A DNA stretch of 64,000 nt from Vicugna vicugna (lineage: Eukaryota). The translations under genes and the position numbers were made by a program. The notes beneath the pieces were generated by a model. It saw nothing but the letters and a program-made list of their open reading frames with translations, was not told the origin of the DNA and ran no database searches. The stretch lies in assembly GCA_013265495.1 (NCBI GenBank), contig MU057796.1, forward strand, positions 124,001-188,000, given 5' to 3'. Every line of letters starts with the position of its first letter. The first letter of the stretch is position 1. Below, piece after piece: positions 61,055-62,065 of the stretch.

Positions 61055-61477
61055 GACATAAAAGTGTGAGCGGCCCTGGGCGAGCGCGAGAGGCGGCGGC
61101 TGCTCTGCCCTCCGGGTGGCCGCGCCGGCGCCCGCGGCAGCCACAGGTGCGAAGGGGCTCGCGGGAGGCGAGAGGGCGCCCTGCGCTCCCCTCCCCCCGC
61201 CCCCACCCCCAGCTCGGGACTTCAGCTCAAGTCACTCGGCGTCCGAGCTCCCTCCCCAGCCGCAGCCTCAGCGGGGGGAGCGAGAGCAGGCGAGGAGCGG
61301 CCGGCGCGCGCCCGCCCAGGGGACTTGGGGTTCGCAGGGGGTTGTTTTCGGCTCTGAGGAGGTCCCCGCCCAACCTTCAAAATTTTGTCCAAAAGCAGAC
61401 AAGAGGATCGCCCCGCGCTGAGCCGGCTGGTGGGCAGCAGGAGGCGCCTGATCGCCGCCGGGGCGCTGGGGGTGGTG

Positions 61478-62065
61478 ATGGTGCTGCTGCTGGTCATCCT
61501 CATCCCGGTGCTGGTGAGCTCGGCCGGCACGTCGGCGCACTACGAGATGCTGGGCACCTGCCGCATGGTCTGCGACCCCTACGGGGGCACCAAGGCGCCC
61601 AGCACGGCCGCCACGCCCGACCGCGGCCTCATGCAGTCCCTGCCCACCTTCATCCAGGGCCCCAAAGGCGAGGCCGGCAGGCCGGGGAAGGCGGGCCCGC
61701 GGGGGCCCCCGGGTGAGCCCGGGCCGCCGGGCCCCGTGGGCCCCCCGGGCGAAAAGGGCGACCCCGGCCGCCAAGGCCTGCCGGGCCCGCCCGGGGCGCC
61801 CGGCCTGAACGCAGCCGGGGCCATCAGCGCCGCCACCTACAGCACGGTGCCCACGATCGCCTTCTACGCCGGCCTCAAGCGGCAGCACGAAGGCTACAAG
61901 GTGCTCAAGTTCGACGACGTGGTCACCAACCTCGGTAACCACTACGATCCCACCACGGGCAAGTTCACCTGCTCTATCCCAGGCATCTACTTCTTCACCT
62001 ACCACGTCCTGATGCGCGGAGGTGATGGCACCAGCATGTGGGCTGATCTCTGCAAAAACAACCAG
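61478..62065 (+). CDS. C1QL3: Complement C1q-like protein 3 (CTRP13), exon 1 coding part (196 codons: signal peptide, collagen Gly-X-Y, N-terminal part of gC1q); exon 2 not seen in the window
   Basis: [39 protein letters not shown]...WADLCKNNQ matches recalled C1QL3. Kozak gtgATGg. Donor CAG|GTGAGT at 62065/62066, phase 0. Confidence 0.97.

Follow-up and report, generated by a model that had tools for sequence, protein, structure and literature searches.

The C1QL3 locus

The window analyzed here, the whole stretch of 64,000 nucleotides (nt), comes from Vicugna vicugna (assembly GCA_013265495.1, contig MU057796.1, positions 124,001 to 188,000 of the forward strand). The element in question is an AUU codon in the 5' leader of the C1QL3 gene, from which in-frame translation would add 32 residues to the N-terminus of the protein. 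C1QL3 is a synaptic organizer, generally regarded as an exclusively secreted ligand of ADGRB3/BAI3. An earlier note on this DNA had proposed that initiation at the AUU converts the secreted protein into a membrane-anchored one. All features of the window described below are on the plus strand, and positions are those of the window.

Exon 1 of the mammalian C1QL3 gene lies within the window. Its canonical coding part (61478-62065) encodes a signal peptide, a Cys-containing N-terminal segment, the collagen repeats (~61658-61807) and, from ~61859, the first part of the gC1q domain. The exon ends at the donor CAG/GTGAGT, between 62065 and 62066, a boundary fixed by an intronless copy of the gene (L005, see below) and by the human mRNA. 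The Pfam collagen profile (PF01391) scores 38.6 bits (cut-off 27.2) over residues 93-142 of the protein P0002, a Gly-X-Y repeat that follows the N-terminal segment and precedes gC1q. The C1q profile (PF00386) scores 70.7 bits (cut-off 23.7) on the same protein, the part encoded by exon 1 covering profile positions 1-70 of 127; the remainder of the domain is encoded by exon 2, beyond the window. Among the matches listed, the top ones carry the name C1QL3 and show 98-99% overall identity; C1QL1, C1QL2 and C1QL4 are found at other genomic places and are 64-76% identical to the window gene. Judged from its sequence, the gene is C1QL3 and not one of these three. A CpG island (G+C content 0.65-0.78 over ~60550-62650) surrounds exon 1, leader and promoter included.

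The start region of C1QL3

Upstream of the canonical ATG (61478-61480), which has the strong context gtggtgATGg with G at both -3 and +4, the C1QL3 frame is open as far as an in-frame TGA at 61355-61357. This TGA is also present in the human mRNA when the two are compared by eye, and it means that no start farther 5' can feed the C1QL3 frame on an unspliced leader. The ATT lies at 61382-61384, exactly 96 nt before the ATG; it is preceded by ccaaccttcaaa (61370-61381) and stands in the immediate context caaaATTt, where position -3 (61379) is A and position +4 is T. The 32-codon extension that it opens, read from I/M, occupies 61382-61477 and is in frame and stop-bounded upstream, with no ATG anywhere in 61358-61477. 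The 5' end of the human RefSeq mRNA, as printed in Ivanov et al. 2011, matches the window at ~60536 by eye, which places the ATT within the annotated 5' leader.

No in-frame near-cognate codon occurs between the TGA and the ATT, and eleven others follow between the ATT and the ATG. Among these are a TTG directly 3' of the ATT (61385-61387), which could act as a rival or tandem start, and two CTG codons and a GTG (61418, 61427 and 61430, together spanning 61418-61432), all of them still 5' of the triplet RRR at 61439-61447. RRR is a basic cluster on the predicted cytoplasmic side of a 23-residue apolar span (61448-61516), the predicted signal anchor of the long form. The earlier note had placed the TGA, the ATT, the TTG, both CTG codons and the ATG exactly where they are found, and was equally right about the A at -3 and the 96-nt spacing. 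The GTG at 61430 was absent from its list of alternative starts; automatic gene calls on Logan contigs begin at this GTG position, giving MGSRRRL...

How much of this could arise by chance was estimated with 2000 dinucleotide shuffles of the 300 nt preceding the ATG at 61478. The frame stayed open for at least 40 codons in 1586 of the 2000, so that an open frame with near-cognate codons is, taken alone, at chance level. The absence of any ATG from the leader between 60660 and 61381 was likewise considered as evidence for an AUU start and rejected, 288 of 2000 shuffles being equally free of ATG. The feature counts as real because it is conserved across paralogs and orthologs, not because of the open frame itself.

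Conservation among C1QL paralogs

Paralogs were sought in the assembly from which the window comes (2.03 Gb, 12405 contigs; the window is C841:124001-188000), and C1QL1, C1QL2 and C1QL4 were located at L002, L007 and L004, respectively. The comparison with these three genes, which the earlier note had suggested, finds an ATT at the homologous site in all four members of the family, 90-102 nt 5' of each AUG. The contexts are caaaATTt in C1QL3 (96 nt before the AUG), caccATTg in C1QL1, caccATTa in C1QL2 (102 nt) and cgccATTg in C1QL4 (93 nt). The extension sequences have diverged among the paralogs, and what is kept is the frame and the design of charge and hydrophobicity: each of the four has a cluster of R/K residues (RRR, RK, RRRR and RRKR), with RKR or RAR in fish.

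Several intronless copies came to light in the same search. L003 (G000:C12404:7501153-7504851, minus strand) is a full-length intronless copy of C1QL1 with the frame intact, 98.4% identical to its parent L002 over 837 nt; the match begins 139 nt 5' of the ATT, so the C1QL1 mRNA that was retro-copied contained the ATT. A second intronless C1QL1-like copy (L006/L008, on G000:C9640) is frameshifted. L005 (G000:C11155:1212644-1215961, match 1500-1823) is an intronless, 5'-truncated C1QL3 copy on another contig, in which exon 1 is fused to exon-2 sequence (…NNQVRASAIAQDADQNYDY…FIIYAD). It is 98.5% identical to 61747-62073 of the window, has lost one codon (DPTTGKF to DPTGKF) and stops short of the ATT; by its appearance it is a processed retrocopy of recent origin.

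Conservation across species

Of 398 candidate proteins found with a query of residues 1-70 of the ATT-started product, 250 reached E <= 0.001 and 120 were listed. The query was aligned with 26 proteins that cover most of the region, out of 49 retrieved, a selection that favors rows bearing the extension; many of the aligned rows are gene models or automatic open reading frame calls that read through the leader. Over the extension, gene models of a whale and a cobra and one Logan-contig protein are identical to the window at 32/32 residues, and a finch model is identical at 27/28. In 19 further rows, teleost by name or unnamed, the identity is 18-26 of 31. The mature N-terminal segment of those 19 rows keeps 24-34 of 36-39 residues (27/30 in P0016), which is comparable to how well the extension is conserved. 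In the 24 aligned rows chosen for covering the extension, indels within it are of whole codons only.

The start position itself stands out. Ile occupies the start column in 24 of the 25 rows that have a residue there; the exception is P0006, whose first nine residues are unrelated and look like a mis-modeled upstream exon. The residue before the start Ile is K in 21 rows, T in 2 and N in 1, and since the codons for K, T and N all begin with A, an A at -3 can be inferred in 24 of 24. Upstream of the start Ile the similarity between rows is lost within a few residues. Residue 2 of the extension is S, P or A in the fish rows, and L13 and L16 are nearly invariant.

Between human and window, one base differs by eye in the 96-nt extension: human has CTG at codon 2 where the window has TTG, the two codons being synonymous, and the TTG is thus not conserved even between these two mammals. 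The ~60 nt 5' of the ATT are also nearly identical by eye, so nucleotide identity between mammals cannot separate coding conservation from conservation of the leader. Together with the position of the leader in a GC-rich CpG island, this near-identity would suit a conserved RNA or regulatory element in the leader, for instance one that controls use of the AUG, in which the peptide is irrelevant. The RNA of 61382-61500 (119 nt) folds at -57.1 kcal/mol (z = -1.45), and 14 of 200 shuffles fold equally well, so folding is no better than in shuffled sequence; an Rfam search of 60000-62400 gave 0 matches. Divergence of the paralogs with retention of frame and charge pattern, and the restriction of indels to whole codons, also speak against an RNA element, and published analyses of coding evolution report the opposite of what it implies (10.1101/2024.02.16.580719, PMC11317171; here and below, the literature is cited from the available part of each source). 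These include a PhyloCSF signal for the extension (10.1101/2024.02.16.580719). We consider the RNA-element explanation very improbable.

Sequences that have lost the canonical start bear on translation of the extension. A metagenome scan yielded 5 loci, of which two (L009 and L010) span the start region; both are from fish and are too distant for an estimate of nonsynonymous relative to synonymous change (dN/dS). The C1QL1-like contig L009 retains the ATT, as caccATTt. The C1QL3-like contig L010 (1186 nt, start region ~573-670) has caaaATAt, that is, ATA in place of ATT; GCG stands where the canonical ATG would be, and an ATG occurs 66 nt 3' of the ATA. To go by its codons, this paralog is incapable of making the usual short form. 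In a caecilian C1QL3 (P0028, isoform X1) Leu replaces the canonical Met and the annotated ATG start, MGRKRL, is inside the extension; a second caecilian C1QL3 record (P0033) is annotated from MAAGALGVV, and both caecilian records thus have AUG codons inside the extension. Since the canonical AUG is lost in P0028 and L010, translation must take in at least some of the extension in both.

Three observations on individual records should be added. An AUG-started extension common to the teleosts was entertained and dropped, because an upstream AUG is supported by the Mugil record and by no other. The cluster of P0025 (90% identity, 126 members) mixes C1QL3 with 'ras suppressor protein 1' records, probably as a result of fused models of neighboring genes, and for this reason its size says nothing about C1QL3. 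In P0005, from a Logan contig of 1824 nt of another species, the far 5' leader (MPKRLPFL…GVRV) is joined directly to FKILSKS…, making an AUG-started frame of 381 residues that includes the extension and is equivalent to ~60592-60876 of the window joined to ~61376. GT-AG ends are missing from the window at the junction that this implies; an artefact, a deletion and rare splicing are all conceivable.

Published evidence and the choice of start codon

An AUU-started long form of C1QL3 is already published: the prediction dates from 2011, and a 2024 preprint, whose peer-reviewed version is said to have appeared in Molecular Cell in 2024, largely bore it out for the family. The prediction is entry #18 (NM_001010908) in Supplementary Dataset 1 of Ivanov et al. 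2011 (PMC3105428), which gives exactly the 32-residue extension with "AUU initiation = 30.1 kDa"; the earlier note's statement that C1QL genes are listed as candidates for non-AUG extension is correct. The human gene of that entry is the same gene with the same codon, the same extension at the amino acid level and the same TGA 27 nt upstream, the synonymous codon 2 being the only difference seen by eye in 96 nt. The main text of Ivanov et al. contains neither 'signal peptide' nor 'signal anchor' nor 'transmembrane' (0 occurrences each; PMC3105428).

The topological consequence was reported in the 2024 preprint (10.1101/2024.02.16.580719, PMC10888845). There, C1QL1, C1QL2 and C1QL3 expressed with their native 5' untranslated regions gave two proteoforms each. 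Changing the AUU to CUA, or its context to an anti-Kozak one, eliminated long C1QL2; long C1QL2 was membrane-bound and short C1QL2 secreted; the N-terminus of long C1QL2 directed GFP to the cell surface; and Phobius predicted transmembrane domains in all four C1QL long forms (10.1101/2024.02.16.580719). Two further papers describe the ATT as conserved in all four C1QL genes and in lamprey (PMC11317171, PMC11623489).

The long form might nevertheless start at another near-cognate, such as the TTG at 61385 (CTG in human), the CTG at 61418 or 61427 or the GTG at 61430, rather than at the AUU. The product would still include RRR and the lengthened core, so the outcome for topology would be unchanged. 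The eleven near-cognates that follow the ATT, the near-invariance of L13 and L16, the generally greater strength of CUG over AUU (Ivanov et al. 2011, PMC3105428) and the CTG and GTG starts that earlier ribosome profiling called for C1QL3 and C1QL2 (PMC11317171, PMC11623489) all lean this way. However, the ATT alone is common to the four paralogs, and the same position is Ile in 24 of 25 aligned rows, whereas in fish codon 2 encodes S, P or A. The conserved part of the peptide starts with the Ile and not at L13, and in C1QL2 the long form is lost when the AUU is changed to CUA or placed in an anti-Kozak context (10.1101/2024.02.16.580719). A start at one of the later codons is accordingly unlikely in our estimate, and we take the ATT at 61382 as the conserved near-cognate start.

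Predicted topology of the long and short forms

Apolar runs were obtained by simple residue counts, with Kyte-Doolittle means. Counted in this way, the long form of C1QL3 has an apolar run of 23 residues (mean 3.05) and the AUG form one of 13. The reading of the earlier note, that RRR is followed by 23 uncharged residues and that the AUG form begins in the hydrophobic core with no basic n-region, thus agrees with the counts: the run of 23 is that at 61448-61516, and the AUG form has no n-region at all. The n-region of the long form comprises 22 residues, with 7 K/R and 2 D/E (net +5), and its RRR adjoins the span. The last 13 residues of the span are the h-region of the signal peptide of the AUG form, in which the 13-residue core is followed by SSAG. 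This arrangement recurs throughout the family: in all four paralogs the long form has an n-region of 21-23 residues, net charge +3 to +5, that ends in an R/K cluster, followed by an apolar run of 22-24, and the AUG form has a run of 13 and no n-region.

The usual criteria for a type II signal anchor are the positive-inside rule and a span of ~20 residues or more. On this basis, long C1QL3 is predicted to have such an anchor, with the collagen and gC1q domains outside the cell, and the sequence features support this prediction. The chain that the earlier note had drawn, from AUU start to basic n-region and longer core to type II signal anchor, is supported both by the published reading of the family and by the anatomy and conservation described above.

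Two other fates of the extended protein have to be weighed. In the first, signal peptidase would still cut at SSAG, so that either start would yield the same mature, secreted C1QL3, with the extension doing no more than tuning the efficiency of targeting. The c-region (SSAG/TS) is indeed unaltered in the long form, and the extension would supply the basic n-region that is typical of signal peptides and is missing from the AUG form. Against this, a 23-residue apolar run after a 22-residue n-region is anchor-like by the textbook length rule, and complementary DNAs of C1QL1, C1QL2 and C1QL3 with native leaders give two species each, with long C1QL2 in the membrane fraction (10.1101/2024.02.16.580719). 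Continued cleavage is therefore improbable as we see it. In the second, the extension would mask the signal peptide and leave the long form untranslocated in the cytosol, where it would have a separate role or be rapidly degraded. PMC11623489 reads the extensions in this sense, arguing that a signal peptide must be N-terminal so that extended isoforms 'will not be secreted'. But a hydrophobic span that is internal, this long and flanked by basic residues on its N-terminal side is normally taken as a signal anchor, the collagen and gC1q domains depend on the secretory pathway, and the long C1QL2 N-terminus sent GFP to the cell surface (10.1101/2024.02.16.580719). We judge masking to be just as improbable as cleavage.

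The closest systems known, besides human C1QL3, are C1QL2, C1QL4 and the neuronal pentraxin receptor (NPTXR/NPR). In this genome C1QL2 has the same layout as C1QL3, with the ATT 102 nt before the AUG, RRRR and a 24-residue apolar run, and differs from it in context (caccATTa versus caaaATTt). By analogy, long C1QL3 is inferred to be anchored in the membrane in the same way as long C1QL2. C1QL4 has an ATT and extension homologous to those of C1QL3 (PMC11317171); in addition it has extension peptides identified by mass spectrometry and a 'strong' context, of which C1QL3 has neither (PMC11317171, PMC11623489). In NPTXR/NPR, as proposed for C1QL3, the start codon chooses between a transmembrane and a secreted synaptic organizer made from one mRNA, and a single hydrophobic core serves both signal anchor and signal peptide (10.1101/2024.02.16.580719). 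Its annotation is the reverse of that of C1QL3: the transmembrane protein already known is the long, CUG-started form, and the secreted AUG form is the new find. It also belongs to the pentraxin family, which is unrelated to the C1q/TNF family of C1QL3.

A proposed leaky-scanning model

The proposed mechanism is as follows. Scanning ribosomes would meet the AUU at 61382 first, and a minority would initiate at this weak near-cognate with A at -3; the majority would scan on to the strong AUG at 61478. The AUG product would have a cleavable signal peptide and give the secreted C1QL3 that binds ADGRB3/BAI3. The AUU product would gain 32 residues, a basic segment of 22 plus 10 apolar ones that lengthen the core to 23, and would keep this region as a type II signal anchor that escapes cleavage; its N-terminus would face the cytosol, and its collagen and gC1q domains would lie outside the cell. 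A secreted and a membrane-tethered form would thus come from one mRNA. We put the probability of such an AUU/AUG choice between anchored and secreted C1QL3 at roughly 0.75.

A number of points weigh against this model. The AUU of C1QL3 is a weak start with T rather than G at +4, a context weaker than that of C1QL1 or C1QL4 and one that rates as 'moderate' by the definition of PMC11317171. No RNA stability beyond composition was found 3' of the AUU (z = -1.45, as above), nor was any obvious hairpin seen ~14 nt 3' of it; with the fold within composition and no Rfam match, a start-enhancing hairpin is not invoked. The case for AUU use in C1QL3 is built, in this analysis, on anatomy and on how well the AUU and extension are conserved, and the choice of aligned rows by coverage of the extension may have missed orthologs with a broken frame. 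The near-identity of the ~60 nt 5' of the ATT in human and window blurs the mammalian part of that conservation. As to the published work, mutagenesis of the AUU, fractionation and GFP targeting concern C1QL2 only, and the data on C1QL3 consist of two bands on ectopic expression and the Phobius prediction (10.1101/2024.02.16.580719). Peptide support is limited to the extension of C1QL4, and the earlier ribosome profiling had assigned the starts of C1QL3 and C1QL2 to CTG and GTG codons (PMC11317171, PMC11623489).

Possible mixed oligomers and consequences

Long and short C1QL3 chains have the collagen and gC1q parts in common and might co-assemble through them. In that case a single anchored subunit could hold an entire trimer or hexamer at the presynaptic membrane, with the ratio of AUU to AUG initiation setting how much C1QL3 is retained and how much diffuses. 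Tethering of mixed trimers had also been suggested in the earlier note. This is a tentative proposal, and we hold it to be possible rather than probable. The words 'trimer', 'hexamer' and 'oligomer' do not occur in the main text of 10.1101/2024.02.16.580719, and 'heteromer' occurs there only with regard to NPR, so mixed C1QL trimers are not addressed in that text. If the proposal holds, the AUU/AUG ratio should respond to how stringently start codons are selected, for example to levels of eIF1 and eIF5, and the lineages that have lost the canonical AUG (the caecilian P0028 and the fish contig L010) would be natural all-long variants.

A tethered form made from the same mRNA would alter how the synaptic retention of C1QL3, its knock-outs and its overexpression constructs are to be read. 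AUG-started constructs leave out the long form, a point already in print for the family.

Other features of the locus

The leader and promoter contain a TATAAA at 60631-60636, in CpG-rich sequence. Just 5' of it is a cluster of five ATGs (60543-60592), after which the next ATG, 885 nt on, is the C1QL3 start. An AUG-free leader would be expected if transcription began 3' of the TATAAA, although, as the shuffles given above indicate (288 of 2000), this is not beyond chance. A (GGC)6 repeat lies in the 5' leader at 61039-61056; by eye, the run is shorter in the human mRNA of the Ivanov supplement.

The coding part of exon 1 has a few unusual residues. In the collagen part D replaces E (GEKGDPGR, 61760-61762). 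Residue 158 of P0002 (61853-61855), a nearly invariant K in the other 26 proteins of the alignment, is T in the C1QL3 of this species, and residue 173 (61898-61900), a nearly invariant E in the same 26, is K. The retrocopy L005 carries both the T and the K, so these two are not read errors.

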